Shown: in pieces, positions 7,734-48,021 of the stretch | Position numbering within the stretch: position 1 is the stretch's first letter | Layout: each line of letters opens with the position of its first letter | Source of the DNA: Escherichia phage vB_Eco_CWW26 | Length of the DNA: 48,021 bases | Sequence record: PQ900155.1 | Reading direction: 5' to 3' (one strand) | Made by a program: the position numbers and the translations under genes | Notes under the pieces: generated by a model | The model's database searches: none | What the model was told of the DNA's origin: nothing | The model's input: the letters and a program-made list of their open reading frames with translations, nothing else

Positions 7734-7734
7734 C

Positions 7735-23677: not shown

Positions 23678-23684
23678 TGAATAA

Positions 23685-23713
23685 ATAATTACATTGTTTG
23701 ACGTGATTGTCAA
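23685..23713 (-). promoter_or_regulatory. sigma70-like promoter, variant palindromic -35 (leftward)
   Basis: Minus strand TTGACA-atcacgtcaaacaatgt-AATTAT; + strand palindrome TTGACGTGATTGTCAA 23698-23713; weak -10. Confidence 0.35.
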
Positions 23714-34027: not shown

Positions 34028-34065
34028 CTCTGTTCCTCTCCGTAAGAAAAGCCCCAATTAAGGGG

Positions 34066-34245
34066 CTAAACGATAATAGTGTCACCTACTTTTAAAGCGT
34101 AGGCTTCATTTCGGTCTTTGAACCATCTTTCTGTATTTGAAACACTTCCCCAGCAGTTGTATTCAATCTTGACACGGTATGTTTGATACTCTTCATCCCA
34201 CATCGGTTCTTCCACTTTGGTTACCGTTGCATTAAGATTATTCAT
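34066..34245 (-). CDS. hypothetical small protein (59 aa)
   Basis: Hand-translated MNNLNATVTKVEEPMWDEEYQTYRVKIEYNCWGSV...; ATGA-coupled to upstream small ORF. Confidence 0.3.
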   Translation of the reverse strand: MNNLNATVTKVEEPMWDEEYQTYRVKIEYNCWGSVSNTERWFKDRNEAYALKVGDTIIV

Positions 34246-34391
34246 CCCCGTGTATACTCCGTATCATTTGTTTTATTTAACCCATTCTGGTTAATGTATT
34301 CCCGGCGTTGCTCCTGCACCTGTTTAATAGCCTTTTCCAGTTCGGCTAACTTGTCATCAAACTGTTTCAGTCGTTGGTCGTGTTCGGTCAT
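34242..34391 (-). CDS. hypothetical small coiled-coil protein (49 aa)
   Basis: Hand-translated MTEHDQRLKQFDDKLAELEKAIKQVQEQRREYINQ...; ATG overlaps the exonuclease stop. Confidence 0.3.
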   Translation of the reverse strand: MTEHDQRLKQFDDKLAELEKAIKQVQEQRREYINQNGLNKTNDTEYTRG

Positions 34392-34921
34392 AATTTCACC
34401 CCGTGCTTTTCACAAATTTCAATTAAGTGCCACGCTTGCGTGCGAGCGTCATCCAACGCATTATGATGCGTACCGAAACGGTCGCACTTAACGTCTGGAA
34501 ACAGCGATTTCATTGTGCGATAACAACGGTCATTCCAGAATTTCCACGGTTGGTTTTGACCGCATTTACGATATGCAGCACTGAGAATGGTGTTATCGAA
34601 TGCAGCACCGTTCCCCCACATCTGAACATCGCCGAATTTTTCCAACCAGGTTGCAAAATCATTAAGAACGGTTGCGAGAGATTGGGCTTTTTCGTTGTTC
34701 TCAAATGCAGCACGTGCGGCATCGGATTGTTGCAACCACCACAGCACTGTAGAAGTGTCCATTTCAAGTCCCTGACGCACTGAGCTATCAAGCGACACTT
34801 GCGCATAAAACCCTTCTTGCTCAACATTCTGAGCATCAAAAATAACCGCACCAATGGCAATAATTGCTGCACGATTACCGTTGCCCATTGTCTCAAGGTC
34901 TAACATGCAATGTTTCATCAT
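34388..34921 (-). CDS. 3'-5' exonuclease (DnaQ-like DEDD family)
   Basis: N-terminal MLDLETMG (Exo I D-x-E) and C-terminal HNALDDAR (Exo III). Confidence 0.6.
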   Translation of the reverse strand: MMKHCMLDLETMGNGNRAAIIAIGAVIFDAQNVEQEGFYAQVSLDSSVRQGLEMDTSTVLWWLQQSDAARAAFENNEKAQSLATVLNDFATWLEKFGDVQMWGNGAAFDNTILSAAYRKCGQNQPWKFWNDRCYRTMKSLFPDVKCDRFGTHHNALDDARTQAWHLIEICEKHGVKL

Positions 34922-34964
34922 CTCTCCGGATTAAATTACCCCGGCTCGCACCGGGGCGTTGTAG

Positions 34965-35768
34965 TTATGCTACTTTCTGACAGTGTTGTGCGATTAACTC
35001 TTCGCTCCAGCCTGGCATATTGAGCAACTGTGCTTTGGTATACACCGCGCCGTTGTAGCTGTACTTCTCTTCGACAACCGGCGGCGGTGTTACTAACAGG
35101 TCAGTTGCTGGCGGCGGTGTTGCAGGTGCCGGAGCAGCCGGAGCCGGGGTTGGAACAGGTGCGCCGCCGCCGAATACACTTGCCGCATCCGGACCGCTGC
35201 CTTCACGAACAATCGCTTCACCGGGGCGTGACAGTTCGAGCAGGTTTGGGTTCAGATATACGCCCGGAGACTTTGCTGGTTTATTGCCTTTAGCCACGAT
35301 ATTTACGCGTACATAGTCACCCAGCTTGATAGCGTTTGCGTCCTGAATTGCGTCCAGCGGGCTATATTTGCCAACGTGGTAGCAGTTGTAGGGAATTCGA
35401 GTATTAAGATGTAATACCCAGTGGCCGCGTTTGTAAGGGTCACTATTAGGAACATTACCTTCCTTGTTGGGAATGTCGCTATCGCCGTCAACTACCTTCC
35501 ATGAGAAATCGTTACGACGGGTCATTGCCTCATCGTAACCATGTTCAGCATCCAGTGCCGCCATGACGATTTGTTTGCCCCATTCGGTATCTTTCCAGTC
35601 TGCTTCACCAGTTTTAGGAATTGCAATACCGATGTAAATTTCCTTAACTGGCTGACCATCTTTACCGATGACCGGCTGTTTTGTGACTTTATCGGTGCGT
35701 ACATTTTGCTTCAGCGGGTGACCATGAATCAGACGAGCAACAGGGGTAACGAAAGTAAATTGAGCCAT
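34965..35768 (-). CDS. putative ssDNA-binding protein (DUF2815-like) with Pro/Ala-rich linker
   Basis: Position next to the Cas4-like nuclease; linker PVPTPAPAAPAPATPPPA; family from memory only. Confidence 0.35.
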   Translation of the reverse strand: MAQFTFVTPVARLIHGHPLKQNVRTDKVTKQPVIGKDGQPVKEIYIGIAIPKTGEADWKDTEWGKQIVMAALDAEHGYDEAMTRRNDFSWKVVDGDSDIPNKEGNVPNSDPYKRGHWVLHLNTRIPYNCYHVGKYSPLDAIQDANAIKLGDYVRVNIVAKGNKPAKSPGVYLNPNLLELSRPGEAIVREGSGPDAASVFGGGAPVPTPAPAAPAPATPPPATDLLVTPPPVVEEKYSYNGAVYTKAQLLNMPGWSEELIAQHCQKVA

Positions 35769-35822
35769 CTTGTAAATCCTCTCTGCTAAGTGTGGGAGAC
35801 CCTCTGTCTCCCGGTGATTTGA

Positions 35823-35851
35823 ATACTACGTTGGTTTGACGAGTACGTCAA
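35823..35851 (-). promoter_or_regulatory. sigma70-like promoter, palindromic -35 (leftward)
   Basis: Minus strand TTGACG-tactcgtcaaaccaacg-TAGTAT; palindrome TTGACGAGTACGTCAA 35836-35851; 5'UTR hairpin GGGAGAC-N5-GTCTCCC. Confidence 0.55.
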
Positions 35852-35854
35852 CAA

Positions 35855-37030
35855 CTATTTTCGGGAAAATACATTTTTAATTGCACGTTCATCGACCTGT
35901 TCCAGCTTGACACCTGTCACAGGTGTTTCGGAGTACTGCTCAATAATGGACGGGTCGATACCTTTTTTGACACACTGTGCGGGTGTGTCCAGTTCCTGCG
36001 GCTTACGAAGATTCTGACCGAGTAAATCCCCCATCATAATCACCTGGTCAACCGGAACATCTTTCTTCCAGCGCTTACGACCGTATGTGGTTTTGGCGCT
36101 ATAGAATGTCACGTGTTGCCCCTGCTTAATCTCGTGCAGTGCCTGTTCCTCCAGACCACTGAGACGCATTTTAATCATCTCCTGAGCACGCTGCAGGAGT
36201 CGCAATTCAACACCCAGGGCATGACCGGACAGGTTGTGCGTCTGTAACGACTGCACGTAGTCCACACCGGCATAACTTTGTTGCTTCAGCGTGTCACAGT
36301 GTGCGCGTGCGCTACAGTCGAGACAGTGTGGCCCCGGCGTACACATCGGCGCGGTGTCCAGCACGCGGGGCATCGTCTCGTTCACCTGCTGCCGGTATAC
36401 ACACAGTTCATCGTATGTGAGCGCCCATTTGCGTACCGTACCGTCACTGGTGAATCCGCGAGGCTGCACGATGACCAGTTCAATAACGTCCGGCGGCGTC
36501 TGGAATTGCTCACAAATACTGAACGCTTCAATCAATAGCTGCCAGTTTTCAAACGGGTCAACAATGCGATGACCGAATTTAGCGTCCCAGACACGTAGTA
36601 CCTTTTCTTCCGGTACGTACACCCACGCGTCAGGAATACAGTACCAGTCGCCGTAACCCGGGACGGGACACGCTTCCTCAACGTGAAGTCCCTGAGTGCA
36701 GTCATGACTGTTACAGTAACCCCACACCTCGTTAAAATACTCACGAGCGGCGTCAAACAGTTCATCCGTGATAACAATTCCATCCTTTGACAGACTGCCC
36801 ACCAGTTCACCAAACGGCTCATTACGGAACAGTTTCTGAGCCACTTCGTGACATGCCCGGCCCTCTAGCCGGGATTGTGACGGTTCGACGTCCAGTGGTG
36901 GATAAGCCTGCTGCGCACGGAACGACCCGTTACAGTTCATCCACGTACCAGCGTCGGATACTTTGGGTAAATTAGTCATGTTTACTCCAACCCATCCATT
37001 ACGACCAGACGCAATCCCGCAATTAGGCAA
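35855..37030 (-). CDS. Cas4-like PD-(D/E)xK nuclease (DUF2800-like) with C-terminal Cys cluster
   Basis: Cys cluster CTPGPHCLDCSARAHC near the C-terminus; adjacency to the SSB-like gene. Confidence 0.45.
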   Translation of the reverse strand: MPNCGIASGRNGWVGVNMTNLPKVSDAGTWMNCNGSFRAQQAYPPLDVEPSQSRLEGRACHEVAQKLFRNEPFGELVGSLSKDGIVITDELFDAAREYFNEVWGYCNSHDCTQGLHVEEACPVPGYGDWYCIPDAWVYVPEEKVLRVWDAKFGHRIVDPFENWQLLIEAFSICEQFQTPPDVIELVIVQPRGFTSDGTVRKWALTYDELCVYRQQVNETMPRVLDTAPMCTPGPHCLDCSARAHCDTLKQQSYAGVDYVQSLQTHNLSGHALGVELRLLQRAQEMIKMRLSGLEEQALHEIKQGQHVTFYSAKTTYGRKRWKKDVPVDQVIMMGDLLGQNLRKPQELDTPAQCVKKGIDPSIIEQYSETPVTGVKLEQVDERAIKNVFSRK

Positions 37031-37311
37031 TTATCACCGTATGCAAAATTTGCGGTATGTGGTGATTTAGCCATCACACTGGTGTCAGAAACCCATTCAA
37101 AATCGATTCCCTGTTTTTCGATGATTTCCATACCAATACCATAAGCGTTAGAAGGGCAAAACGGTTGCCAGTGGTCTTGCTCATTTCTTACGAATAAACA
37201 ATCACCGTGATGTTCCCGAATTATGAAACCATTCACTTGTTCACCCGGTTTGAAAATCTTGTAATTTAGTTTCAGCGCTTTTGCGACATTTAAGTCTAGT
37301 TCTTTGTCCAT
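36982..37311 (-). CDS. hypothetical protein (109 aa)
   Basis: ATG at 37311 (MDKELDL) within ORF-track frame; overlaps the downstream gene start. Confidence 0.4.
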   Translation of the reverse strand: MDKELDLNVAKALKLNYKIFKPGEQVNGFIIREHHGDCLFVRNEQDHWQPFCPSNAYGIGMEIIEKQGIDFEWVSDTSVMAKSPHTANFAYGDNCLIAGLRLVVMDGLE

Positions 37312-37315
37312 TGTC

Positions 37316-38350
37316 TCACTCCCCCAAATGCGCTTTAACACGTGCCACAAACGGACCGATTTTATCCGGGTGGGCGTTCAGTTCCTGCACCGACGACATA
37401 CCGTCCTGCGCCAGCAGCGTGTTCACCGTTGCCACATCAATCTTACCGTGACGCTCGGTCAGGAAGGTCATGAGGCGTGGGAAGTCCCAGTCGGTTACTT
37501 CCGGTACAGGCGGTGCAACAACTACCGGCGGCGGTACAGGTTTCTCGTATGCAGGAGCACCACCGTGACCATTTTCACACGTTACGCCGCTGGGCGATGA
37601 AAATTGAGGTTTCATGCACACTGAACACAGGTCACCAGTTTCAGGATGTGTCACTTCCGATTTCCAGTCATCAGTAGGAGGCGGCACAGGAAGTGGCGGA
37701 ATACCTGCAACGGTCTGCTCGGTTACCACGCCAGCGTCAGTGTGGAAGTCATCGGCCGGAGGTGTTACCGATGGTTCAGGAGTGACGCAAATATGTGGAG
37801 TTCCGTGATGGTCACAACCTTCATCAATGCACAATTCTTCACCGGATGGTGTCACCGGTACAGGTTCTTGAGGGAAACGTAATTCATCCTGTACTCGCTG
37901 AATAGTTGCCGCCCACTGCTCCTCATCCATGCCCTTCGGCTTACGACGCAGACGCCACGTACCGTCCGCATTAAGCGCCTTACTGGTGGAGTGGATACGC
38001 TCGTCCCACGGTGTACCGGTTGAGTCGGTAGTGGGTGGGTCGATATCCGGTTTAACTGGTACGCACAATTCAACCATTTCGCGAGTTACTTCAATACTTC
38101 TCCCGTCACGGGGAGCCAGCGACTCAACCTGTTGAGCAGTCGTGTCGACTTCCGGCTCATCCATCATTTGTGGCGCGGATTGTTGCAGTAATTCAGTGCT
38201 GATAACCAATGGGGTTACGGTCACATCGACTGGGTGACCATCTTTTTTGCTGGCAATTTCGATAAGCGCTTTACCGAATTGAAGCAATGCGATGGTATCG
38301 TCGTTCGGGATGGTTAAAGTGATAAGGTTGGTCATTGTTCTACGCTCCAT
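37316..38350 (-). CDS. modular Pro-rich zinc-binding replication-module protein
   Basis: 344 aa; Cys/His clusters CIDEGCDHHGTPHIC and CSVCMK...CENGHGG; contains GTPWDERIH also found in the polymerase C-terminus. Confidence 0.5.
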   Translation of the reverse strand: MERRTMTNLITLTIPNDDTIALLQFGKALIEIASKKDGHPVDVTVTPLVISTELLQQSAPQMMDEPEVDTTAQQVESLAPRDGRSIEVTREMVELCVPVKPDIDPPTTDSTGTPWDERIHSTSKALNADGTWRLRRKPKGMDEEQWAATIQRVQDELRFPQEPVPVTPSGEELCIDEGCDHHGTPHICVTPEPSVTPPADDFHTDAGVVTEQTVAGIPPLPVPPPTDDWKSEVTHPETGDLCSVCMKPQFSSPSGVTCENGHGGAPAYEKPVPPPVVVAPPVPEVTDWDFPRLMTFLTERHGKIDVATVNTLLAQDGMSSVQELNAHPDKIGPFVARVKAHLGE

Positions 38351-38622
38351 AATAAAGTTTCTTCAATCACTTCGAATTCGATTTCATCAACGTAACCGGT
38401 TTCCCAGTCTGTACCGACATTTAAGTTGCATTTCCACTTGTAAACGCCGGGAATTTTATCTTCTACCTCAAACGGTAAACCGATTTCCTCAGCGTTGCCG
38501 GGGTCAAGCAAGCTGTAATGAATGTTGGGGGTTTTAAGAATTGTAACTGTGCCCCATTTATCAACCGCCACGATCCACTCGGACCCGTTGGGTGAGTCGT
38601 ATTGTTCATCATTTTCTTGCAT
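38332..38622 (-). CDS. small highly acidic protein (96 aa)
   Basis: About 21 Asp/Glu versus about 5 Lys/Arg; ATG at 38622 with GGAGGA SD; first gene after the promoter. Confidence 0.45.
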   Translation of the reverse strand: MQENDEQYDSPNGSEWIVAVDKWGTVTILKTPNIHYSLLDPGNAEEIGLPFEVEDKIPGVYKWKCNLNVGTDWETGYVDEIEFEVIEETLLWSVEQ

Positions 38623-38654
38623 CTCTCTGTCCTCCATTGTTGTCGATGTGGTGA

Positions 38655-38683
38655 ACTCTATATCACCATGACGCAACCGTCAA
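38655..38683 (-). promoter_or_regulatory. sigma70-like promoter, palindromic -35 (leftward)
   Basis: Minus strand TTGACG-gttgcgtcatggtgata-TAGAGT; + strand palindrome ATGACGCAACCGTCAA 38668-38683. Confidence 0.5.
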
Positions 38684-38697
38684 CACTAATTTTAAAT

Positions 38698-38726
38698 TTG
38701 ACACGGGGTGGGTGGTGCGACATAAT
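38698..38726 (+). promoter_or_regulatory. sigma70-like promoter (rightward)
   Basis: TTGACA-cggggtgggtggtgcga-CATAAT (17-bp spacer), about 35 bp upstream of ATG 38761. Confidence 0.55.
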
Positions 38727-38760
38727 GACGCCATCGTCAATAGTTGAGAGGAAGTGAGAG

Positions 38761-38964
38761 ATGAGTAATATTAAACCCGGCAAAGACCTTGCACCTTACT
38801 GTCATTTTAGACCGATGACGTACCATCAATGCGACAGCCGTTGCGACGATTATTATGATGGATGGGAATGTGACTTCTGTGGTCACGTTATCCCCGCTCC
38901 AGAATGGAATGCAAAGTTAAAAGTAAAATATGACGGTGGGGATTTAACCAATGACACAAATTAA
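38761..38964 (+). CDS. small Cys-rich protein (67 aa)
   Basis: ORF track; GAGAGGAAGTGAGAG SD; CHF...CDSRCDD...CDFCGH. Confidence 0.45.
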   Translation: MSNIKPGKDLAPYCHFRPMTYHQCDSRCDDYYDGWECDFCGHVIPAPEWNAKLKVKYDGGDLTNDTN

Positions 38965-39124
38965 ACAACTGCTCCGGCCATCTTACGGCTGGTACAACTC
39001 GGTCAGTAAGAAGGATAAGTGGTTTCTCGACGATGTGCAGATACCGATGTATGTGGCACGTAAACTAATCAGAAAAGCACGTATGGTCGAGTCGAACGAC
39101 GTGCGCAAAGTGTGGGAGATGTAG
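38951..39124 (+). CDS. hypothetical small protein (57 aa)
   Basis: Hand-translated MTQIKQLLRPSYGWYNSVSKKDKWFLDD...; overlaps neighbours in a coupled array. Confidence 0.3.
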   Translation: MTQIKQLLRPSYGWYNSVSKKDKWFLDDVQIPMYVARKLIRKARMVESNDVRKVWEM

Positions 39125-39126
39125 AG

Positions 39127-39315
39127 ATGGGAACAGGGCGTATACGAGCCGCTTTACAAGCTATCGATGTCGAACTGAAGATATGTGAACTCGGTGTCAT
39201 AGGGTGGAGTCATTTTTATGATACTCCGTTAAAGAAAAAGAAAAGACAGCTTAAAGCTCACACGAAGGGATTAATAAATCACGACAGGATTATCACGTGG
39301 AGCGACCGTAAATGA
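39127..39315 (+). CDS. hypothetical small protein (62 aa)
   Basis: ATG at 39127 within ORF-track frame 39112..39315; stop overlaps the helicase ATG. Confidence 0.35.
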   Translation: MGTGRIRAALQAIDVELKICELGVIGWSHFYDTPLKKKKRQLKAHTKGLINHDRIITWSDRK

Positions 39316-40955
39316 TACCAACACTCCGACCCTATCAGGAAAAACTGGTCAAAGACACGTACCAGCAGTGGGACGCCGGTAAGCAGTTTGTGGCAATGGT
39401 GAGCGCTACCGGCTCCGGCAAGTCAATGACCCTGACCGCTATTGTCGCAAAAGAGCGTGACCGGGGTCAGTATGTGCTGGTGCTGGCGCATCGTCAGGAG
39501 CTTATAACACAGTTGAGCGACACGATGGGACGTATGGAAATCCGCCACCAGGTTATCGCTGCTAATAAAGTGGTACGCTTCGCCGCTAAACAGTCGATGG
39601 AAAACCACGGGGTTAATTATGTTGACCCGAATGCGCGGGTAATGGTTGCGTCCGTACAATCAATGCGTGAGGCTAAAATTGCTGACCTGGCAAAGCTGGG
39701 TAATAAGCTGACCGTTGTGCAGGATGAATTCCACCATGCCACGAAGAAATCGAAGACCTGGGGAGGTGTGCTGACACCCCTGCTTAACGCTGGTGCACGC
39801 GGACTTGGACCGACCGCCACACCTTGTCGTGCGGATGGACAGGGTTTATCACGCGAGACGGACGGTTACGCGGATGTGATTGTTGAAGGTCCGTCAATGC
39901 GCTGGCTTATCGACAACGGATATCTTAGTCAGTACAAAATTTACTGCCCGCCGACCGACCTACAACTGGATAACGTGGAAACCAGTAAAACCACGGGGGA
40001 CTATAAAGAGAAGGAACTCAAAGCGGAGATTGGGCGTTCACATATCGTCGGCGACATTGTGAGTCACTATCTCAAAATCTGCCCGGGTAAACGCGGCATC
40101 ACCTTTACCGTCGGCGTGGATACGGCAGAGGAAGTAGCGGAAGAATATCGTAAGCGTGGTGTACCAGCAATTGCATTGTCCGGGCGCAATGCAGATGAAG
40201 AACGTGTACAGGCTATCCGTGATTTGAAGTCTGGAAAGATTTTGCAAATTGTTAATGATTCGTTAATAGGGGAAGGAGTGGACATTCCCGCAGTGGAAGT
40301 AGTGTCTTTCGCCAGACCGACACAGAGTTATGCACTTTATGCACAAATGTTCGGTCGTGCGCTGCGTCCGTTCGAGGGAAAATCACACGCTATCATTATC
40401 GACGCAGTATCAAACGTCATGCGCCACGGTTTACCGGATGCACCGCGTGAGTGGAGTCTTGACCGTCGGGAGCGTCGCACGGGTAAAAGTGAACCATCGA
40501 CGGTGCGCGTGTGTACAGCTTGCGCGGCAGTGTATGAGCGGTTCCGTGACGCATGTCCGGACTGCGGTGAGCCTGTACCTAAACCGGCGCAACGTAGTGG
40601 TCCAGAGTTTGTAGACGGTGACCTTTACGAGCTTGACCCGGACGTACTGGCGCAGATGCGTAATGAGGTTGTGGGGGCACGTGAGACACCCGAGGCAATG
40701 CGTGACAGACTGACCGCACAACATGCGCCGCCTGCTGGAGTAATGGCTAACGTCAAACGTCAGAGAGAAAGGCTTGACGCGCTCGTCAAATTGGACCTAA
40801 AATTAGCGGAGTGGGCCGGGTATCGTCGTGCGGAAGGTCTGAGCGACAATGAAATATTTCGCAAGTTTTACCTGACGTATGGCGTGTCATGGCTGGAGGC
40901 GCAGGCGCTCAAATCGGCTGATGCGGATAAATTAAGAGAGAGGATTGGGTTATGA
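39312..40955 (+). CDS. SF2 DNA helicase (DEAD/DEAH-like)
   Basis: Walker A SATGSGKS; motif II VVQDEFHH; C-terminal zinc-ribbon-like CTACAAVYERFRDACPDCGEP. Confidence 0.65.
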   Translation: MIPTLRPYQEKLVKDTYQQWDAGKQFVAMVSATGSGKSMTLTAIVAKERDRGQYVLVLAHRQELITQLSDTMGRMEIRHQVIAANKVVRFAAKQSMENHGVNYVDPNARVMVASVQSMREAKIADLAKLGNKLTVVQDEFHHATKKSKTWGGVLTPLLNAGARGLGPTATPCRADGQGLSRETDGYADVIVEGPSMRWLIDNGYLSQYKIYCPPTDLQLDNVETSKTTGDYKEKELKAEIGRSHIVGDIVSHYLKICPGKRGITFTVGVDTAEEVAEEYRKRGVPAIALSGRNADEERVQAIRDLKSGKILQIVNDSLIGEGVDIPAVEVVSFARPTQSYALYAQMFGRALRPFEGKSHAIIIDAVSNVMRHGLPDAPREWSLDRRERRTGKSEPSTVRVCTACAAVYERFRDACPDCGEPVPKPAQRSGPEFVDGDLYELDPDVLAQMRNEVVGARETPEAMRDRLTAQHAPPAGVMANVKRQRERLDALVKLDLKLAEWAGYRRAEGLSDNEIFRKFYLTYGVSWLEAQALKSADADKLRERIGL

Positions 40956-41251
40956 GCAATATGTGCGACTGTCATTCCTGTGGTCTAAGAAGTAGTGCGG
41001 CACCCGAAAAGAACAAGGAATACGAAAAAATAATCAATATGTTAATCGACTCTGGTGGGGAGAAACAACTTGTTGAGTTAATTAGAATTTTTACGAATAA
41101 AATTTCCACGGAAATATCCACATCTCGTGGTCCGAATCTGCTTGCATATGAAAACAAAGAATTAGCACGAGTAGATGTAATTACGCGGGCAGCTGAACAA
41201 TTGAAAAGTCTTCTCACCTCTCGCATTCAGGATGGGGGTGACACAAAATGA
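40952..41251 (+). CDS. hypothetical protein (99 aa, AT-rich codons)
   Basis: ORF track; ATGA overlap with helicase. Confidence 0.4.
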   Translation: MSNMCDCHSCGLRSSAAPEKNKEYEKIINMLIDSGGEKQLVELIRIFTNKISTEISTSRGPNLLAYENKELARVDVITRAAEQLKSLLTSRIQDGGDTK

Positions 41252-41721
41252 CACCAACACTTCTCGAATGGCAACGTAAGCACGGTATCACGGCTGAGGC
41301 GCTGGCTGACCTTGTGACAATGGTGGGACTGGATGTCCCACGCTCAACCAAAGATACGCCCGAAGCGCGTGTACAGGATGAGGCGCGACTGCTGGCAAGT
41401 AAGATGGGCTGGCGACTTTTTCGCAATAATGTGGGTGTCCTGAAGGATGAGCGGGGTGTACCGGTACGTTACGGTATCGCAAATGACTCCCCGGCGATGA
41501 ACAAACGTATCAAGTCAAGCGACCTCATCGGCATTCGCCCCGTGGTTATCACACCCGATATGGTCGGGTCAACCATTGGTCAGTTTGTGGCGCGTGAGGT
41601 GAAAAAAGCCGGGTGGAAGTATAAAGGTACGGAACACGAAAAGGCACAGCTCGCATTTGGGACGCTGATTATCGGGCTGGGCGGTGATTTTAAATTTTAT
41701 AGTGGTGAGGGGGAATTGTGA
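41248..41721 (+). CDS. VRR-NUC domain nuclease
   Basis: LFRNNVGV...RYGIANDSPAM...SDLIGIRP...QFVAREVKKAG matches VRR-NUC (PD-(D/E)xK). Confidence 0.6.
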   Translation: MTPTLLEWQRKHGITAEALADLVTMVGLDVPRSTKDTPEARVQDEARLLASKMGWRLFRNNVGVLKDERGVPVRYGIANDSPAMNKRIKSSDLIGIRPVVITPDMVGSTIGQFVAREVKKAGWKYKGTEHEKAQLAFGTLIIGLGGDFKFYSGEGEL

Positions 41722-41996
41722 TGGCTGTTATTACACTTGAGCAAATTATCGAACTTCAATATCGAAGACACAACAACGTGTCGAATCAACAATTCAAACA
41801 ACTTAACGGAAAATATTCTTCCAGAGGTTTGAGAAATGCGCACCGTTACGCCGATATTGAGCGCCACAAATGTTGGCCACGCGGTAAAACTTATTACCGT
41901 CTCTACCGTCGCCAGATGAATCCACACATCAACTTTACTGTTTCACCGGGTCATCCGGACAGATATAAACACATGTCGTTGCGGATGTGGAGTTGA
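41718..41996 (+). CDS. hypothetical basic protein (92 aa)
   Basis: ORF track; ATGA overlap with VRR-NUC gene. Confidence 0.4.
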   Translation: MMAVITLEQIIELQYRRHNNVSNQQFKQLNGKYSSRGLRNAHRYADIERHKCWPRGKTYYRLYRRQMNPHINFTVSPGHPDRYKHMSLRMWS

Positions 41997-42050
41997 CCAC
42001 TCCGTCAACCTGTGCCATACTGCAACAAATTACCTAATGGAACCGAACTC

Positions 42051-42329
42051 ATGAGCAAAGAGCATATTTTAGAAGTAGCTTACACGATGGCACAGCGCGA
42101 CGGCTTTGGTACTCTTACCCGCGATGGTGTCGCTGCCGAGGCTGGTGTGGCGATGGGAAGCGTTAACCATCACTGGGGTAAGATGTCCGCACTTCGTGAA
42201 GCAGTGATGCAACGGGCGGTAGAAGAAGAAAACCTCGAATTGATTGGGCAGGGGATGGCGCTGGGTGATAGCGTTGCCAAATCCGCCCCACTGGAGCTAC
42301 GCACACGCGCGTTGACAACCCTGCTTTAA
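42051..42329 (+). CDS. small HTH protein (TetR-type N-terminal HTH, no ligand domain)
   Basis: SKEHILEVAYTMAQRDGFGTLTRDGVAAEAGVAMGSVNHHWGKMSALREAV fits the TetR HTH pattern; ATG at 42051 (ORF-track frame 42012). Confidence 0.45.
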   Translation: MSKEHILEVAYTMAQRDGFGTLTRDGVAAEAGVAMGSVNHHWGKMSALREAVMQRAVEEENLELIGQGMALGDSVAKSAPLELRTRALTTLL

Positions 42330-42353
42330 TAACTAAAACAGAGAGAGACAGAG

Positions 42354-44711
42354 ATGACACATGTGAATCCCCCGGTGCAGGGGGCCGATTCCCTGCACTT
42401 TATCGTCTGCAAAACAGTATCTTCACAGAAGAAGCCCGGGCGCACGGAGAAGATGCCATGTAATGCCGCTGGTGATGTAGTCAGTCTGCACGTTGCGGAC
42501 CGTATGACTCATGCTCAGGCGGTTGCGGCGGCTTCTGCACTGGGTGAGTCATATCGCCCCGCAGTCATTCTCACGGGTGACGGTCGTTTCTGCGTGGATA
42601 TCGACGGTGCACTACAGGATGATAACACCTGGTCACCGCTCGCGCTGGAGTTGTGCACCACTTTTGCCGGTTGTTACGTGGAAGTGAGTAACAGCGGTAA
42701 AGGCTTGCACATTTTTGGTTACAGTCCGTCCATCCCTGAGCATAGCTGTAAAAATATTTCGCTGCACATCGAACTGTACACGTCTGACCGTTTTATCTGT
42801 CTGGGAAGTGGTGCACGGGGTGACATGATGTTTAACGCGTCTGTACCACTCAACGCCACGGTTGCACGTTATTTCCCACAGACCGAGCAAGTTACGGCGA
42901 CGGAATGGACCACAACTCACGTCGAAGGCTCATGTCCGATTGAGGACGATGCGAAACTCATCGAAAAAGCCTGTTCGAGTAAAGGTGGTGTCGCGGCTGT
43001 TTTCGGTGGCAAAGCAACATTCAAAGACCTGTGGACGCGTAATGTTGAGGTACTGAGTGATGCGTATCCAGATGAGGACCGCGAGTATGACGGGTCGAGC
43101 GCCGATGCCGCACTGGCCCAACATTTATCGTTCTGGACCGGTGGTAACTGTGAACGTATCGAACGCCTGATGTGTCTGTCTGCGCTGGCACGTCCTAAAT
43201 GGGACAGTCACAAATCGTACATGCGACGTACCATTCTGGGTGCTTGCGCGCGTCAGACAACTTATTACAGTGTCGGCGCACCGATTGAACTGGTGACCCC
43301 TGCTCAGGTCATTGAGACGGGTGCACCAGTTATCCGCAGTGGGTATCAATTTATTGGTGGCTCGCAGCTTGTTGACCACTTCAAAGGTTGTGTATATGTG
43401 GCAGACAGTCACCGTATTCTCACCCCCAACGGTCAGATGCTGAAGTCTGAGCAGTTTAACGCGATGTACGGTGGCTATGTGTTTGCGCTGGATGATGGTA
43501 ATGAGAAGACCACTAAAAAGGCTTTCGAAGCGTTCACCGAGAACCAGTGTATCATGTTTCCGAAAGTTGACCGCTCAACGTTCCGTCCGGACCTGCCGCA
43601 GGGTGCTATCATCGAAGAAGATGGTCTGCGTCATGTCAACGCATACGTACCGGTGACAGTAGCAAGCGTCCCGGGCGATGTGACACCTTTCCTTACTCAT
43701 CTGGCCAAACTGTTACCCGTCGAGCGTGACCGCGACATCCTGCTGTCCTACATGGCAGCATGCGTACAGTACAAAGGGACCAAGTTCAAATGGGCACCAT
43801 TGTTGCAGGGCGTCGAGGGTAACGGTAAAACACTGTTCACACTGTGCGTAATGGAAGCGGTTGGTTCACGCTACAGCCACATGCCGCCAGCGCAGGAAAT
43901 CGGTGAGAAGTTCAACGCCTGGCTGTTCGATAAAATATTTATCGGCGTGGAAGATATTTACGTTCCGGAGCAGAAACTTGAACTGATTGAAACACTCAAG
44001 CCAATGATTACCGGTGAGTACCTCGCTAAGCGTGCGATGCAGCAGGACCAGGTAATGCACCGCCTGTGTGCTAACTTCATGTTTAACAGTAACCACAAGA
44101 ACGCCGTGCGCAAGACCGCTAATGACCGCCGGTTCGCTATTTTCTACACCGCGCAGCAGGAGCATATGGACATTGTGCGCGATGGCATGGGTGGCGACTA
44201 CTTCCCCAACCTGTACGACTGGCTCAAACGTGGCGGTGGATTTGCAGCCGTAACGCATTATCTGGAGAACTACGCCATTCCCGCACAACTTAACCCGGCG
44301 ACACATTGTCAGCGTGCCCCGGAAACAAGTAGCACCCATGAGGCTGTGACAGCATCGCTCGGTAGTGTCGAGCAGGAAATCATGGAAGCAATCGACGAGG
44401 GTCGCCAGGGCTTTGCGGGCGGTTGGGTGAGTAGTAAGGCACTGGATAATCTGTTACGCCAGATGCGCGCTGACCGCGCTGTACCGGTAGGTAAACGTCG
44501 TGACATGATGCGTCAACTGGGTTACGACTGGCACCCGGCGCTTAAAGACGGACGTGTGAACAATGTGATAATGATTGACGGTGGTAAGCCGCGGTTGTAC
44601 ATCAAGATTGGACACATTCACGCTAACCTCACAAATGCGGCGGACGTGGCGCGCCATTACGCAGCGGCACAGGGTGATACAAGTGCGTTAGCCTTTGCAG
44701 AAACTAAATAA
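42354..44711 (+). CDS. primase-polymerase (AEP) fused to SF3/D5-like helicase
   Basis: AEP motifs CVDIDG and SNSGKGLHIFG in N-terminal half; Walker A GVEGNGKT in C-terminal half. Confidence 0.65.
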   Translation: MTHVNPPVQGADSLHFIVCKTVSSQKKPGRTEKMPCNAAGDVVSLHVADRMTHAQAVAAASALGESYRPAVILTGDGRFCVDIDGALQDDNTWSPLALELCTTFAGCYVEVSNSGKGLHIFGYSPSIPEHSCKNISLHIELYTSDRFICLGSGARGDMMFNASVPLNATVARYFPQTEQVTATEWTTTHVEGSCPIEDDAKLIEKACSSKGGVAAVFGGKATFKDLWTRNVEVLSDAYPDEDREYDGSSADAALAQHLSFWTGGNCERIERLMCLSALARPKWDSHKSYMRRTILGACARQTTYYSVGAPIELVTPAQVIETGAPVIRSGYQFIGGSQLVDHFKGCVYVADSHRILTPNGQMLKSEQFNAMYGGYVFALDDGNEKTTKKAFEAFTENQCIMFPKVDRSTFRPDLPQGAIIEEDGLRHVNAYVPVTVASVPGDVTPFLTHLAKLLPVERDRDILLSYMAACVQYKGTKFKWAPLLQGVEGNGKTLFTLCVMEAVGSRYSHMPPAQEIGEKFNAWLFDKIFIGVEDIYVPEQKLELIETLKPMITGEYLAKRAMQQDQVMHRLCANFMFNSNHKNAVRKTANDRRFAIFYTAQQEHMDIVRDGMGGDYFPNLYDWLKRGGGFAAVTHYLENYAIPAQLNPATHCQRAPETSSTHEAVTASLGSVEQEIMEAIDEGRQGFAGGWVSSKALDNLLRQMRADRAVPVGKRRDMMRQLGYDWHPALKDGRVNNVIMIDGGKPRLYIKIGHIHANLTNAADVARHYAAAQGDTSALAFAETK

Positions 44712-44735
44712 GCCCTTCGGGGCTTTTTTTTTTTT
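44711..44735 (+). terminator. rho-independent terminator after primase-helicase
   Basis: AGCCC-TTCG-GGGCT followed by T12. Confidence 0.75.
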
Positions 44736-44745
44736 GCAATTAGTG

Positions 44746-44774
44746 TTGACGAGTTCGTCAATGGGGAGTATAGT
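44746..44774 (+). promoter_or_regulatory. sigma70-like promoter, palindromic -35 (rightward)
   Basis: TTGACG-agttcgtcaatggggag-TATAGT (17-bp spacer); palindrome TTGACGAGTTCGTCAA 44746-44761; about 30 bp upstream of ATG 44805. Confidence 0.65.
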
Positions 44775-44804
44775 TAGTTCATCGACAACAGAGAGGTGAT
44801 GAAG

Positions 44805-44912
44805 ATGAGCAAGAAAACACAATTTTCAGTAAGCAACTACCATAACGAGCACGTCATGCGCTGGCACTGGCAGAAACTCAAAGAGCGCTACCTGGCAACG
44901 CAGGGTAAATAA
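44805..44912 (+). CDS. hypothetical small protein (35 aa)
   Basis: Hand-translated MSKKTQFSVSNYHNEHVMRWHWQKLKERYLATQGK; GAGAGGTGA SD; followed by hairpin GCGCCAC-CGAA-GTGGCGC. Confidence 0.35.
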   Translation: MSKKTQFSVSNYHNEHVMRWHWQKLKERYLATQGK

Positions 44913-44956
44913 ATAACATAGCGCCACCGAAGTGGCGCATAACCAGAGATAAGACC

Positions 44957-45130
44957 ATGAAAAACATTATCAATCATCACAAATTGTCTGACCTTCTGCG
45001 TGATATGACCGAGGTTCAGGCGTTGAACGCACTGTCACGTATGCGCACACAAGCTGACCGGGAGGGACTGTGTGTCACTCGTCTCATTGTTGAAGGTAAA
45101 GTTGTGGAGCAATGGATATGGAAACATTGA
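44957..45130 (+). CDS. hypothetical small protein (57 aa)
   Basis: Hand-translated MKNIINHHKLSDLLRDMTEVQALNALSRMRTQADREGLCVTRLIVEGK...; weak SD. Confidence 0.3.
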   Translation: MKNIINHHKLSDLLRDMTEVQALNALSRMRTQADREGLCVTRLIVEGKVVEQWIWKH

Positions 45131-45333
45131 GTTATTGTCAGCTGATGGAGCGCATGTTAGCGGCTGAAGCGCGGGTGGTGGAACTGGAGAAATATAAAGC
45201 TGCATTTATAACGTGGCAAGACAAAACAGAATGGGTACAGAAGGATTCACGCTTTGACATTTTATTACCCTGGGGTAAACATCGCGCGGACGTACTGAAA
45301 GAGTACATTGAATTGCTGGAGCGTAAACCATGA
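45112..45333 (+). CDS. hypothetical protein (73 aa)
   Basis: ORF track; coupled (ATGA) to downstream gene. Confidence 0.4.
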   Translation: MDMETLSYCQLMERMLAAEARVVELEKYKAAFITWQDKTEWVQKDSRFDILLPWGKHRADVLKEYIELLERKP

Positions 45334-45626
45334 TTAAATATTTACCACTTGTAGCGCTCCTGGTGGGCGCTCAGGTTAACGCAGCTGTTACTGCTGAAAC
45401 AAATGAGTCACAGGTTGCTAACCTGCTCTTTAACGGCTGTAGCGCTCAACGTGCACAAATGGGCGTACAGGAAATTATTAAACAGGCTAACCCCGGCGGC
45501 AATCCAGCAGTGACTGACCTTATCATCAAAGGTTACAAGTTCGGCATTGATTACCCGAACGTCGGATGTAACCAGTTCTTCACGGTTGTCATTGACCAGT
45601 TAGTTAAAAGCCGGAGTAAAGCGTAA
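45330..45626 (+). CDS. small secreted / periplasmic protein with signal peptide
   Basis: MIKYLPLVALLVGAQVNAAVTAE signal-peptide-like N-terminus; two Cys in mature part. Confidence 0.45.
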   Translation: MIKYLPLVALLVGAQVNAAVTAETNESQVANLLFNGCSAQRAQMGVQEIIKQANPGGNPAVTDLIIKGYKFGIDYPNVGCNQFFTVVIDQLVKSRSKA

Positions 45627-45961
45627 TGACTGTACCAGTATTCATTGAAGTATCTGGAGGATACAACAGGCCACCAGTATTGTGCGAATTCGTGATAACC
45701 AAAATGGGGCGGAAATACGCATACGGGTACCGTACGGATATTCCCTATAAAATCGAAGAAAAAATCGACATTGATAACTGGTGGTACTCGCGTGAAGAGT
45801 ACGAACACGAAGTAGTCCGACGGAAATTAGCTGACGCAATAAAGAAGCGATTAAGCGAGTTCATGGGACTGGAATCAATAACGCGCGCATCTGCTTCTGA
45901 TTTACACGGATTAGTTTTGCAACTGAAGAAATGTGGGATAGAGGTGAAATTTGATGATTAG
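45626..45961 (+). CDS. hypothetical protein (111 aa)
   Basis: ORF track; start overlaps upstream stop. Confidence 0.4.
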   Translation: MTVPVFIEVSGGYNRPPVLCEFVITKMGRKYAYGYRTDIPYKIEEKIDIDNWWYSREEYEHEVVRRKLADAIKKRLSEFMGLESITRASASDLHGLVLQLKKCGIEVKFDD

Positions 45962-47096
45962 ATTGACAGACGAACAATTGATTACGGATGTCACATCTGG
46001 AATGAGTGGTCACGCTATTGCGAGAAAGTATGGTATGACCCCCGGCAACATTAACCGCCGCATCAAACGTCTCGGTGCGCGCGGTCTTGGTCACGGTGGT
46101 GATGTGTCTCGCTTTGTGCCGGACGGTTACAAGGTGAAAGGTACATCATCACTGGTGAAGGAGGATGGGACTGTAGCGCTACAATGGGTTAAAACCGACG
46201 TAGACGCCGAGCGTCAGCTGAAAATGATGCAGGAAGCGATTGTGGCACTTACAGAGTGCTTATCCCCACTAGAGGAAATCAATTTAATATCCCATGATGA
46301 GGATAGCACTCTCCTGAACATGTACACAGTAACAGATGCACACATTGGTATGTTGGCATGTGAAGAAGAGGGTGGAGACGATTACGACACCAATATCGCG
46401 GAACATCTCATATCATCGTGGTTCAAATCAGCGACAACATTGGCACCCAATGCAACAGAATGCCTCATTAACCTTCAGGGGGATTTCCTGCACTTCGACG
46501 GACTGAAGGCAGTTACACCAACATCCGGACACATTCTCGACTCTGATACGCGTTTCTTCAAAGTGGTACAGACTGCTATCCGCGTGATTAAACGAGCCGT
46601 GAATATGTGTCTGGAGAAGCATCGGAAAGTGACGCTGCTAATCGCCACTGGTAACCATGACCTCGCGTCCGCCGTGTGGTTGCGAGAGATGTTTAAAGAG
46701 GTGTATTGCGGTAATCCCCGCGTGACCATTGTAGACGAACAAAGTCCCTACTACGCAATCGAATTCGGTAAAGTGATGATTGGTGTCCATCACGGGCATT
46801 GTTCCAGAATGGAAAAGTTGGACGCAGTATTTGCCAGTAAGTTCCGGGAGATTTATGGCCGTACTAAGTTCGGCTACCTACACATGGGACACTATCATCA
46901 TCGGAAAGTGTCAGAGAGCAACATGTTCGTTACCGAGATGCACCAAACTCTGGCGGCCAAAGACGAGTATTCAAGTAACGGAGGTTACGACTCCGGAAGA
47001 AGCGCCACTGTCATAACATATCATCGAGACTATGGTGAGATTGGCAGAATATCAATTCCCGTAGAGATGATTAAGGACCAGTATGGACTGGAATAG
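45954..47096 (+). CDS. HTH domain fused to calcineurin-like metallophosphoesterase (putative)
   Basis: N-terminal HTH-like SGHAIARKYGMTPGNINRRIKRLG; ordered phosphoesterase motifs VTDAHIG, LQGDFLHFDG, IATGNHD, GVHHGH, GHYHH; GAGGTGA SD before ATG 45954. Confidence 0.45.
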   Translation: MIRLTDEQLITDVTSGMSGHAIARKYGMTPGNINRRIKRLGARGLGHGGDVSRFVPDGYKVKGTSSLVKEDGTVALQWVKTDVDAERQLKMMQEAIVALTECLSPLEEINLISHDEDSTLLNMYTVTDAHIGMLACEEEGGDDYDTNIAEHLISSWFKSATTLAPNATECLINLQGDFLHFDGLKAVTPTSGHILDSDTRFFKVVQTAIRVIKRAVNMCLEKHRKVTLLIATGNHDLASAVWLREMFKEVYCGNPRVTIVDEQSPYYAIEFGKVMIGVHHGHCSRMEKLDAVFASKFREIYGRTKFGYLHMGHYHHRKVSESNMFVTEMHQTLAAKDEYSSNGGYDSGRSATVITYHRDYGEIGRISIPVEMIKDQYGLE

Positions 47097-47111
47097 TATC
47101 AGGTAAATAAA

Positions 47112-47138
47112 AGGCCCGCATTTAGCGGGCTTTGTTTT
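47112..47138. terminator. bidirectional rho-independent terminator
   Basis: GCCCGC-ATTTA-GCGGGC followed by TTTGTTTT; T-rich on the minus side too; between convergent genes. Confidence 0.7.
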
Positions 47139-47316
47139 ATCCAAGTGGAAATTTTTTATCAATCCATTCGTTCATCCTAATTCTCAATCTCTTCACGGAG
47201 TAACTCCAGTCATCGGCCTTATTTAGTATCGACTCAACAACTAAAATAATAATGAATACAGGTAGTACGATTATCCTTCCTGTGAGACTTTTCTTACTCA
47301 TCTTGTGCCATTGCAT
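47137..47316 (-). CDS. small membrane protein (59 aa, putative)
   Basis: ATG at 47316 (MQWHKMSKK...) with GGAAGA SD; TM IIVLPVFIIILVVESIL; within ORF-track frame 47137..47484. Confidence 0.35.
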   Translation of the reverse strand: MQWHKMSKKSLTGRIIVLPVFIIILVVESILNKADDWSYSVKRLRIRMNEWIDKKFPLG

Positions 47317-47320
47317 TTTA

Positions 47321-47899
47321 TTATCTTCCACAGTTGCGGCATTCACCATTTGCCACATAACGTTCCGCAATAATATTACAATGCTTGCAAGGCTCATACG
47401 GAATATACCAGCGTTTGCCGTCAGCGATGGCCTGCTGGCGCGGTGATTTAATTTTAATGACTCCAACGTGAATTCCCGATTCACTCAGTAACAGGGCGTT
47501 TTTCATCGTCTCCAACTGTTCATTTAAAACAGAAATATTATGCTCAATCATGGCGATGTTTTCACGCAGTGCATCGACCTCACCAGCGGTGTCAACAATG
47601 GCTGCTTTTGGTTTTTTCCATTCCCCCGTCATGCGTTGTTCGGTTAAGCAGAAGACACATTTACCAGCAGTGTTACGGACGCCCGGATGTCCACATTCAC
47701 TGTTCGGTTTCTTCTGTACTCTCCACGAGCGACCATCATTAAGACCGTCGAGAACTTTTTGATAGAGTTCGTTGCGTGCAGGAAGACCCATGTTTTTCGC
47801 TTTCACAAAATCATGATGGTCATGAAGTGCACAAATACTACACAATTCTGTTTCTTTAAATTTTGTAGTGCCGTGACAATTATCTATAAGATGAATCAT
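47321..47899 (-). CDS. Cys-rich zinc-finger protein (192 aa)
   Basis: Three CxxC-type clusters (C-x8-C-x2-C; C-x11-C-x2-C; C-x2-C-x12-C-x2-C) and a central coiled-coil-like region; first gene downstream of the repeat-associated leftward promoter. Confidence 0.45.
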   Translation of the reverse strand: MIHLIDNCHGTTKFKETELCSICALHDHHDFVKAKNMGLPARNELYQKVLDGLNDGRSWRVQKKPNSECGHPGVRNTAGKCVFCLTEQRMTGEWKKPKAAIVDTAGEVDALRENIAMIEHNISVLNEQLETMKNALLLSESGIHVGVIKIKSPRQQAIADGKRWYIPYEPCKHCNIIAERYVANGECRNCGR

Positions 47900-47924
47900 G
47901 TTTCTCTCCTTTTGTAGAGTATAT

Positions 47925-47954
47925 ACTATAAAATAATAGAGAATTACTCGTCAA
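47925..47954 (-). promoter_or_regulatory. sigma70-like promoter, half-palindrome -35 at repeat boundary (leftward)
   Basis: Minus strand TTGACG-N18-TATAGT; -35 is the first 10 nt of repeat copy C; the second half-site is absent here. Confidence 0.45.
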
Positions 47955-48021
47955 CACCTCATTTTACCCCGAAATACCCGAGCTATCGGGGTGGTGAATT
48001 TACATTCACAATCATAGGTTT
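47945..48021. repeat. start of 300-bp repeat (wrap-around copy of 1-77)
   Basis: 47945-48021 matches 1-77 by eye; implies a 47,944-bp circular or permuted unit. Confidence 0.9.

Follow-up and report, generated by a model that had tools for sequence, protein, structure and literature searches.

Several genetic systems have been described in which one regulator acts at many dispersed sites. In phage P1, the repressor C1 recognizes many operators that are scattered in the genome and overlap the promoters of unrelated transcription units. These operators are asymmetric 17-mers, C1 is not a TetR-type protein, and P1 is a temperate phage whose lysogeny C1 maintains. The repressor of Streptomyces phage phiC31 acts at conserved inverted repeats (CIRs) at early promoters, and gp71 of mycobacteriophage L5 acts at stoperators, which occur in many copies in the early regions; both are immunity systems of temperate phages, and the L5 sites are asymmetric and work mainly on elongation. 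The KorA and KorB proteins of IncP plasmids provide autoregulated, coordinated damping through one palindromic operator in many strong promoters. In T4-type phages, the elements called PeSLs are repeated early-promoter units that flank variable accessory cassettes, with a hairpin transcribed downstream and the whole unit copied. Here we describe a family of promoters in the 48,021-nt genome of Escherichia phage vB_Eco_CWW26 (PQ900155.1; hereafter the window), in which the -35 hexamer forms one half of the palindrome TTGACG-N4-CGTCAA, and we consider a small phage protein, gp78, as the candidate that may read it.

As the P1 system is generally described, the locus resembles it in having one proposed phage repressor and dispersed operators over promoters, and differs from it in its palindromic site, its TetR-type candidate and a genus, Jedunavirus, that is described as virulent. 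Many copies of one short repressor site across early regions are likewise common to phiC31, L5 and this genome, although neither of the former uses the -35 hexamer itself as a half-site. The Kor system belongs to a plasmid rather than a phage, relies on other protein folds and places its operators at the -10 or at a distance. As with the PeSLs, repeated early-promoter units stand beside variable accessory cassettes, but here only two half-sites of 5-6 bp inside the promoter are conserved. Compared with dispersed-operator regulons, what sets the locus apart is a genus described as virulent, the -35 hexamer as half-site, a candidate repressor that is a TetR domain without an effector or dimerization domain, and retention of the arrangement across at least five host genera.

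Positions are numbered in the whole stretch and refer to the plus strand unless stated otherwise. The public record of Escherichia phage ZCEC13 (NC_071140.1/ON086804.1, genus Jedunavirus) has the same length and matches the window from end to end, with 249 substitutions, none of them in any dyad or other site discussed here. Its relatives include the Klebsiella phages JD001 and KpV52. The structural genes run rightward and are broken up by short blocks of small leftward genes, while the replication genes form a divergent operon pair around 38,650. The record carries no annotation of an integrase or of an immunity gene, although no search was aimed at them. A literature search returned no promoter, transcription-start or RNA-seq study of Jedunavirus, ZCEC13, AAM22, JD001 or CP-T1 and nothing on TetR proteins in lytic phages, and no description of this promoter family was found in the searchable literature. 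Some of the homologous promoters are annotated in the GenBank record of KpV52, in which no mention of the dyad was seen.

The palindrome is far more frequent than chance allows. With at most one mismatch, TTGACGNNNNCGTCAA (TTGACGN4CGTCAA) occurs 12 times against 0.20 +/- 0.47 expected, a number reached by none of 100 dinucleotide shuffles. The 14-nt core TGACGNNNNCGTCA (TGACG-N4-CGTCA) has 10 exact matches against 0.09 expected, and at two mismatches or fewer there are 16 matches against 3.3. When hexamer and pentamer dyads of every kind were counted de novo, this dyad ranked first in ZCEC13, and its pentamer core ranked first in KpV52 as well. The motif had been reported at nine coordinates from the letters of the window alone, and it is present at all nine, 23698 being a true variant as stated; the wording 'at least nine' was apt, since three more sites were found at 38725, 40774 and 41993. 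The sites and the promoters related to them are as follows.

4646-4674, minus strand: dyad promoter P1 (site 4659), TTGACG gcct CGTCAG -N7- TAGAGT; drives the leftward cassette 4610-3689.
6412-6441, minus strand: dyad promoter P2 (site 6426), TTGACG agtt CGTCAG -N8- TATACT, with an 18-nt spacer; drives the cassette 6380-5452.
7705-7733, minus strand: dyad promoter P3 (site 7718), TTGACG agtc CGTCAG -N7- CATAGT; drives the cassette 7658-6448.
14825-14853, minus strand: dyad promoter P4 (site 14838), TTGACG agta CGTCAA -N7- TATACT; drives the leftward dUTPase cassette.
18809-18837, minus strand: dyad promoter P5 (site 18822), TTGACG gact CGTCAA -N7- TATAGT; drives 18777-18197.
18845-18860, no strand assigned: second, degenerate dyad TTGATGATTTCGTCAG, 23 bp from P5 and upstream of the rightward tail chaperone gene, with one mismatch in KpV52 and no convincing -10.
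23685-23713, minus strand: variant dyad (site 23698), TTGACA atca CGTCAA (TGTCAA on the plus strand), with a weak leftward -10, AATTAT.
35823-35851, minus strand: dyad promoter P6 (site 35836), TTGACG tact CGTCAA -N7- TAGTAT; drives the gene of a gp2.5-like single-stranded DNA-binding protein (SSB) and probably also the DNA polymerase block.
38655-38683, minus strand: dyad promoter P7 (site 38668), TTGACG gttg CGTCAT -N7- TAGAGT; the leftward arm of the divergent control region of the replication genes.
38698-38740, plus strand: rightward promoter with a separate dyad; TTGACA-17-CATAAT (38698-38726) is the best sigma70 match of the region.
40774-40803, plus strand: dyad promoter within the 3' part of the helicase gene, TTGACG cgct CGTCAA -N8- TAAAAT.
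41993-42021, plus strand: promoter of the regulator gene, TTGACC actc CGTCAA -N7- CATACT, 58 nt before the start of gp78.
44746-44774, plus strand: dyad promoter from which the sequence-only reading started, TTGACG agtt CGTCAA -N7- TATAGT.
47925-47954, minus strand: dyad-free consensus promoter, TTGACG agta ATTCTC ... TATAGT; drives gp88 and gp87.

Ten of these are sigma70-type promoters that follow one oriented plan, TTGACG-N4-CGTCA(A/G/T)-N7/N8-TAnnnT, in which the palindrome has its outer half in the -35 hexamer and its inner half in the spacer, and the dyad spans about -35 to -20. Seven face leftward (4659, 6426, 7718, 14838, 18822, 35836 and 38668) and three rightward (40774, 41993 and 44746). 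The leftward orientation of most promoters had escaped the earlier reading, and its description of TTGACG as the -35 is not literally correct for the seven minus-strand sites; it holds once these are reverse-complemented, the right-hand half-site then being the -35. Because the promoters face left, the plus-strand text opens with CTGACG at 4659, 6426 and 7718, and with ATGACG at 38668. The -35 reads TTGACG at 10 sites, TTGACC at 41993 and TTGACA at 23698. Its sixth position is G in the dyad promoters, or C at the regulator promoter, while the dyad-free -35 of 38698 carries the consensus A; a G is what the palindrome calls for. The -10 boxes are TAGAGT, TATACT, CATAGT, TATAGT, TAGTAT, CATACT and TAAAAT, deviating from TAnnnT at position 1 in CATAGT (7718) and CATACT (41993). 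A -10 at 17-18 bp had been claimed for every site, which is true of most: the spacer measures 17 nt in eight of the ten clear promoters, 6426 and 40774 being the two with 18 nt, while 23698 offers only the weak AATTAT. Start codons with good Shine-Dalgarno sequences had also been claimed, and they do follow the promoters, with GGAG- or GAGG-type Shine-Dalgarno sequences and starts some 30-55 nt downstream of the -10.

The association between -35 and inner half-site also emerges when the spacer is ignored in the search. Matches to TTGACN-N16-18-TANNNT were collected on both strands, and spacer positions 5-9 were then checked for CGTCA, for which chance gives about 0.001 per site. In the window CGTCA is present in eight of nine matches. 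The sole exception is the leftward promoter at 47954, the only strong consensus promoter without a second half-site. An independent consensus promoter scanner placed the dyad sites among its best in 34000-48021. Read from the sequence, the half-site centres lie 9 bp apart, a geometry compatible with a palindromic operator of about 15-16 bp bound by a dimer.

Comparison among phages revealed which parts of these promoters are constrained. Thirty metagenomic Jedunavirus loci were retrieved from IMG/VR through the gp78 gene, and six orthologous sites were each found in 28-30 of them. In all six ortholog groups both half-sites are invariant or nearly so, with at most a rare variant in an outer base, whereas differences in N4, N7 and the flanks are seen among up to 60-70% of the unique sequences. 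The dyad within the helicase gene is held through third codon positions. The stem bases in the ortholog stacks display neither covariation nor compensating pairs. Since the bases stay fixed and pairing is not kept by compensating changes, read-out by a protein rather than a hairpin is indicated, and on these alignments the constraint on the half-sites is best explained as base-specific protein recognition. The suggestion that the dyad marks a dimeric regulator over the -35 thus gains strong comparative support, and it is from this pattern that we infer binding. Taken with the other comparisons, these alignments make an operator function very probable, with a sequence-specific dimeric protein as the reader of the dyad.

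The same core, at the same kinds of junctions, recurs in phages of other hosts: Pantoea phage AAM22 has 13 sites (at most one mismatch), Vibrio phage CP-T1 nine, and Edwardsiella phage PEi21 five in 15 kb. In Shewanella phage SppYZU01 the dyad sites lie within the replication module only. The core proteins of the motif-sharing phages are about 30-75% identical to their ZCEC13 counterparts. Searched without regard to the spacer, CGTCA was found in 8 of 14 promoters in Klebsiella phage KpV52, in 8 of 11 in AAM22, and in 5 of 12 in CP-T1 (with five more at one mismatch). It was found in none of the TTGACN promoters of Pseudomonas phage Psp6 (0/4), Alteromonas phage R9Y1 (0/3) and Oceanospirillum phage PD0307 (0/6), and such promoters thus do not generally possess the inner half-site. 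Dyads detached from the -35 position occur at 38725 in the window, at 20728 in AAM22 and at 25768 in CP-T1. When 2.9 million viral contigs were scanned for exact matches to TTGACGN4CGTCAAN7TATAGT, 34 stretches were recovered, 31 of them on ZCEC13-related contigs. Wherever new stretches with homologs of the helicase and primase genes that flank gp78 were found, a gp78 homolog was encoded as well (4/4; 39-61% identical). The motif thus co-occurs with the gp78 family and travels with the gp78-bearing replication module, even into SppYZU01 with its unrelated structural module.

The protein gp78 is the candidate for the binder, and its gene lies in the replication region.

42051-42329, plus strand: gp78, 92 residues, with a TetR-type helix-turn-helix (HTH) domain and three short C-terminal helices; proposed dyad-binding repressor.

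Three HTH candidates had been named from the open reading frames (ORFs) of the window, of which only this one bears scrutiny. It matches Pfam TetR_N (PF00440) with 31.3 bits against a cut-off of 24, and its sequence matches in the PDB are all TetR-family proteins, RutR not being among them at E <= 1. An AlphaFold (AF2) model built from a 41-sequence alignment has a predicted local distance difference test score (pLDDT) of 97.8 and comprises seven helices, namely the four of the TetR DNA-binding domain and three short extra ones; in Foldseek searches of the PDB its top 50 matches are all TetR-family regulators, about twice as long as gp78. This model replaced one from a shallow alignment of close relatives, which had reached a pLDDT of only 73.6 and fold matches amounting to noise (14-3-3 proteins). 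The ligand-binding and dimerization domain (about 130 residues) that follows in the TetR family is absent, and the protein is 92 residues long in all Jedunavirus relatives. As this defining C-terminal domain was tested for and is lacking, it would be wrong to class gp78 among the standard TetR-family regulators. It shares with that family the HTH fold, promoter occlusion being the family norm, and differs from it in its length (92 residues against about 190-210) and in having no effector domain, so that no small-molecule switch is expected. The other two candidates did not hold up. The product of 45954-47096 (gp86) was rejected as a winged-helix regulator: it is an SbcD-type DNA repair exonuclease (phrog_704, 1e-140) whose HTH_24 match lies below the Pfam threshold. 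The RefSeq name for this plus-strand gene, 'winged helix-turn-helix domain-containing protein', is misleading. For 47321-47899 (gp88), no HTH was found in Pfam, PHROGs or PDB sequences.

An exhaustive profile-free search placed gp78 in a family that comprises, at E <= 1e-10, 205 clusters (50% identity), the matches extending over all 92 residues. Its members fall into size classes of about 90-120 and about 162-175 residues, the longer class having two matched stretches. In the SppYZU01 homolog, the additional 43 N-terminal residues are a second copy of the HTH (BLASTP 2e-7). Two HTHs in one chain, as in these forms of about 165 residues, are what would be expected if two HTHs are the working unit, which the dyad requires. 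The non-structural genes common to ZCEC13, AAM22 and CP-T1 encode a polymerase, SSB, a PD-(D/E)XK exonuclease, a 339-residue protein of no assigned function, a helicase, a nuclease, a primase and gp78, and SppYZU01 has all of them but the polymerase. Within this common set, gp78 is the only regulator-like gene and the only one with a DNA-binding domain. An imperfect dyad stands just upstream of the regulator gene in ZCEC13, KpV52, AAM22, CP-T1 and PEi21, reading TTGACC in Jedunavirus and AAM22 and TTGACA in PEi21, and carrying two mismatches in CP-T1. By analogy, an imperfect dyad at the gp78 promoter is the usual design of an autoregulated repressor. Further, R-[D/E] (positions 24-25) and V-[A/S]-x-G-x-[V/I] (positions 33-38, where the recognition helix starts) are common to the 11 regulators of phages that bear the motif, and three homologs from motif-free phages differ at both; judged by these sequences, the correlation tying gp78 to the dyad is suggestive only.

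Several points weigh against gp78 as a repressor acting through these dyads. The residue correlation compares 11 sequences with three and is phylogenetically structured, so that the sequences are not independent. The protein lacks the domain through which TetR proteins dimerize. Psp6, R9Y1 and PD0307 encode gp78 homologs and yet are without the motif, and thus the presence of the family alone does not predict the dyad. Co-occurrence cannot separate gp78 from a host factor common to Enterobacterales and Vibrionales. A tight repressor at the leftward promoters would sit in the path of rightward late transcription. A literature search also found no binding, footprint, transcription-start or expression data for these phages. 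As for the motif-free phages, Psp6 has a perfect palindrome, AAATCATAA-N-TTATGATTT, at 16392-16423 over a TTGACG promoter just after its regulator gene, and R9Y1 has CGACAA-N2-TTAAC in both divergent promoters at 2612-2653. A search for an alternative shared dyad in Psp6, R9Y1 and PD0307 gave anecdotal candidates only, two sites each in Psp6 and R9Y1, too few to test; these sequences hint that operator specificity diverged within the gp78 family.

The dyad may be read by some other protein. A host factor of Enterobacterales and Vibrionales, such as a full-length TetR protein of the RutR type, would tie the early promoters to a host signal. RutR, a TetR-family protein of E. coli, reads the 16-bp palindrome TTGACCAnnTGGTCAA; positions 4 and 13 of its box are said to matter most, and the in vivo targets listed include some that match at 9-10 of 14 positions (PMC2475637). 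The phage dyad has the same half-site spacing and the same outer TTGAC/GTCAA (5+5 bases). The phage consensus agrees with this box at 10 of 14 specified positions, including 4 and 13, and TTGACCA, the left half of the dyad at the gp78 promoter, is a perfect RutR half-site. The inner positions 6, 7, 10 and 11 differ, however: where the RutR box has CA/TG, at 6-7 and 10-11, essentially all phage sites have G-N/N-C. Phages of different hosts carry an identical motif, which is absent from the Pseudomonas, Alteromonas and Oceanospirillum phages, a pattern that a host-distribution effect could give; against this, the motif moves with the gp78-carrying replication module, including into SppYZU01 with its unrelated structural genes. 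There is also no clear reason for a virulent phage to place every early promoter under a host repressor, and we know of no host factor with the consensus TGACG-N4-CGTCA. A host reader of the dyad is therefore unlikely in our view. That another phage protein is the binder we regard as quite unlikely, and as less likely on phyletic grounds to judge from the gene content compared. Cysteine-rich gp88 (47321-47899) may bind zinc, as its four CxxC pairs suggest, and is expressed from a promoter that escapes the dyad, but motif-bearing CP-T1 has no homolog of it. The conserved 339-residue protein (37316-38335) is present in ZCEC13, AAM22, CP-T1 and, weakly, SppYZU01, and has no Pfam match. No DNA-binding domain was detected in either, whereas gp78 is a clear HTH protein with a matching phyletic pattern.

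Readings that dispense with a DNA-binding regulator fare worse. The promoters might be a copied cassette, have a spacer preferred by the polymerase, or serve as homology patches for the exchange of accessory cassettes. In keeping with this, related phages have the promoters in common but not the accessory cassettes behind them, the 14838 dyad is cut exactly by the edge of a 300-nt repeat, and terminator-promoter units such as 44710-44774 recur in other genera. Copying predicts, however, that N4, N7 and the flanks be kept along with the half-sites, and they vary; sigma70 has no base-specific need for CGTCA at -25 to -21, and the TTGACN promoters of Psp6, R9Y1 and PD0307 do without it; and the dyads at 38725, AAM22 20728 and CP-T1 25768 have no -10 in register. 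These considerations leave an explanation of this kind very unlikely. The palindrome could also form an RNA hairpin in read-through transcripts, for example rightward late mRNAs, and so affect translation or processing, and late genes do start 1-10 nt after a dyad at 4677 and 7735, at 5266 in AAM22, and at 23379 and 30680 in CP-T1, with 35836 and 40774 flagged as hairpin-like by a scanner. Such an RNA stem would have only 5 bp and -3 to -5.6 kcal/mol, it lacks covariation while its bases are themselves fixed, and most dyads lie upstream of their own transcription start, those at 35836, 38668, 41993 and 44746 not being beside a rightward start codon. No T-run follows the stem at any dyad, except by chance at 35836, and there is no Rfam match. 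Of all the explanations weighed here, a hairpin function is the least credible and extremely unlikely.

Some narrower ideas about the promoter geometry were also rejected. A bidirectional promoter, with the palindrome supplying a -35 on both strands, fails since a -10 is in register on one side only. MerR-type activation from the spacer does not suit spacers of an optimal 17-18 nt with both hexamers near consensus. Sites of the CRP/FNR type have the spacing TGA-N6-TCA, whereas the spacing here is TGA-N8-TCA.

The full model, in which the dyads are operators in early and middle sigma70 promoters and gp78 is their repressor, is the one we favour with moderate confidence; protein binding, gp78 as that protein, its repressor action and its timing are what we infer from the comparisons of sequence. 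Under this model, host RNA polymerase with sigma70 would fire the near-consensus dyad promoters on phage entry, unaided. gp78 would be made early, by read-through from 38698 and from its own 41993 promoter. Two HTH units would then bind TGACG-N4-CGTCA, whose half-site centres, being 9 bp apart, would place them on one face of the helix. The bound dimer would cover the -35 and the upstream spacer, block sigma region 4 and so shut the promoter, while at the rightward replication promoter 38698 it would cover the -10/+1 instead. The perfect operators would be silenced first, after which gp78 would limit itself via its imperfect TTGACC operator, and this weak operator would let the protein keep accumulating after the other promoters are shut. 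The pay-off would be a joint shut-off or damping of the leftward accessory cassettes and the replication genes, sparing collision with late transcription: the leftward cassettes lie antisense inside rightward late operons, and the late start codons 4677 and 7735 abut dyads.

The placing of the individual sites adds detail. The leftward promoters precede small accessory cassettes and the SSB, exonuclease and polymerase genes, and the rightward ones precede replication genes and further small genes; the small leftward cassettes are embedded antisense among the rightward structural genes. The start codon of a rightward head gene (4677) lies 2 nt beyond the P1 dyad, and directly after the P3 dyad comes an in-frame ATG (7735) of the rightward head protease gene. 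The P4 dyad (14838) is cut through by the left edge of the 300-nt repeat element. In the replication region, the dyad ATGACGccatCGTCAA (38725-38740) covers the -10/+1 of the 38698 promoter and supplies no -35, which is the classical position for a repressor; its 57-bp distance from the P7 dyad is conserved in relatives. KpV52 and AAM22 have retained the 40774 site, as has CP-T1 with one mismatch. The 44746 promoter follows directly on the primase terminator (44710-44735) and drives a rightward block of small genes from 44805. The variant dyad at 23698 is kept in KpV52 and AAM22 and faces about 500 nt of noncoding sequence with a strong terminator at the end; the status of this dyad as a promoter is doubtful.

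A common CA-rich motif, CATCGACAACA...GAGAGG, was observed between the -10 and the start codon in the 5' leaders that follow dyad promoters (44775-44804 and, on the minus strand, 38654-38623 and 6411-6381), and in AAM22 too. This motif could enhance translation, or it could simply belong to a promoter-leader unit that the sites have in common. Annotated tiny ORFs or start codons overlap promoters or dyads at 38668-38757, 44734-44799, 14395-14853 and 7687-8829. Annotated ORFs of 29 and 21 residues sit on promoter DNA, and the annotated start 14853 falls inside a dyad, a GTG with a Shine-Dalgarno sequence being present downstream of the promoter. The tiny ORFs and starts placed over promoters in the public record are probably wrong, and for the head protease ATG 7735 is more likely than 7687 as the start.

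Other elements of the window were noted in passing. A 300-nt element occurs twice with 100% identity (1-300 and 14844-15143), and a rightward late operon follows shortly after each copy (terS at 366; the neck gene at 15199). Within the element are two hairpins and, in a stretch very rich in A and T, short direct repeats. KpV52 and AAM22 likewise have two copies, which agree with each other at about 96% and 82%, respectively. Possible roles are those of a late promoter or regulatory region and of an ori or pac site. On the minus strand, 23165-23700 comprises about 500 nt without a credible ORF, between the variant dyad promoter and the strong terminator (23170-23200), with a folding z-score of -3.1. 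This stretch is a mosaic of modules, each about 100 nt long, to which unannotated DNA in unrelated phages and in E. coli prophages is 90-95% identical; one such place lies in HK633 between pR' and the holin gene. Among the modules is a long imperfect hairpin whose inverted ends recall a small mobile element. KpV52 has a version of the stretch that is shorter by about 300 nt, and 23276-23322 gives a weak, below-threshold Rfam match to a fragment of small-subunit ribosomal RNA (33 bits). The minus-strand gene of gp88 (192 residues, no family match) adjoins the 300-nt repeat; that its product is a zinc-finger regulator, for example of late genes, is pure speculation. An 87-nt direct repeat with 74% identity (10883-10969 and 11087-11173) lies inside the gene of an 'endonuclease-like protein' (10463-12043) and is likely to correspond to a repeat within the protein. 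Of the 249 substitutions relative to NC_071140.1, the first 40 at least are clustered at 18541-19683. The last 77 nt of the window (47945-48021) are a copy of positions 1-77, an assembly overlap of the record ends. No tRNA was found by ARAGORN, and no Rfam family was found across the whole window at gathering thresholds.

More tentatively, gp78 might be the founder of a large family of half-size TetR proteins, each a DNA-binding domain with a three-helix tail, that serve virulent phages as ligand-free global timers, silencing whole sets of early promoters of the host polymerase, using the -35 as operator half-site and dimerizing via a new interface or through gene fusion, as in the 165-residue forms; the operators might perhaps also be crossover points for accessory cassettes. 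This wider proposal is possible but doubtful at present.

An understanding of this promoter family bears on phages that are now isolated in large numbers, as the Jedunaviruses are among therapeutic Klebsiella phages. The map of dyad promoters allows better annotation of their ORFs and starts. If the repressor model is true, one 92-residue protein and one 14-bp site would explain the coordination of about ten transcription units, as well as the tolerance of leftward early cassettes inside rightward late operons. The pair would then offer a compact, ligand-free repressor and operator fit for strong sigma70 promoters and useful in phage engineering and synthetic biology, and a function would be defined for a widespread family of proteins consisting of a TetR domain only.

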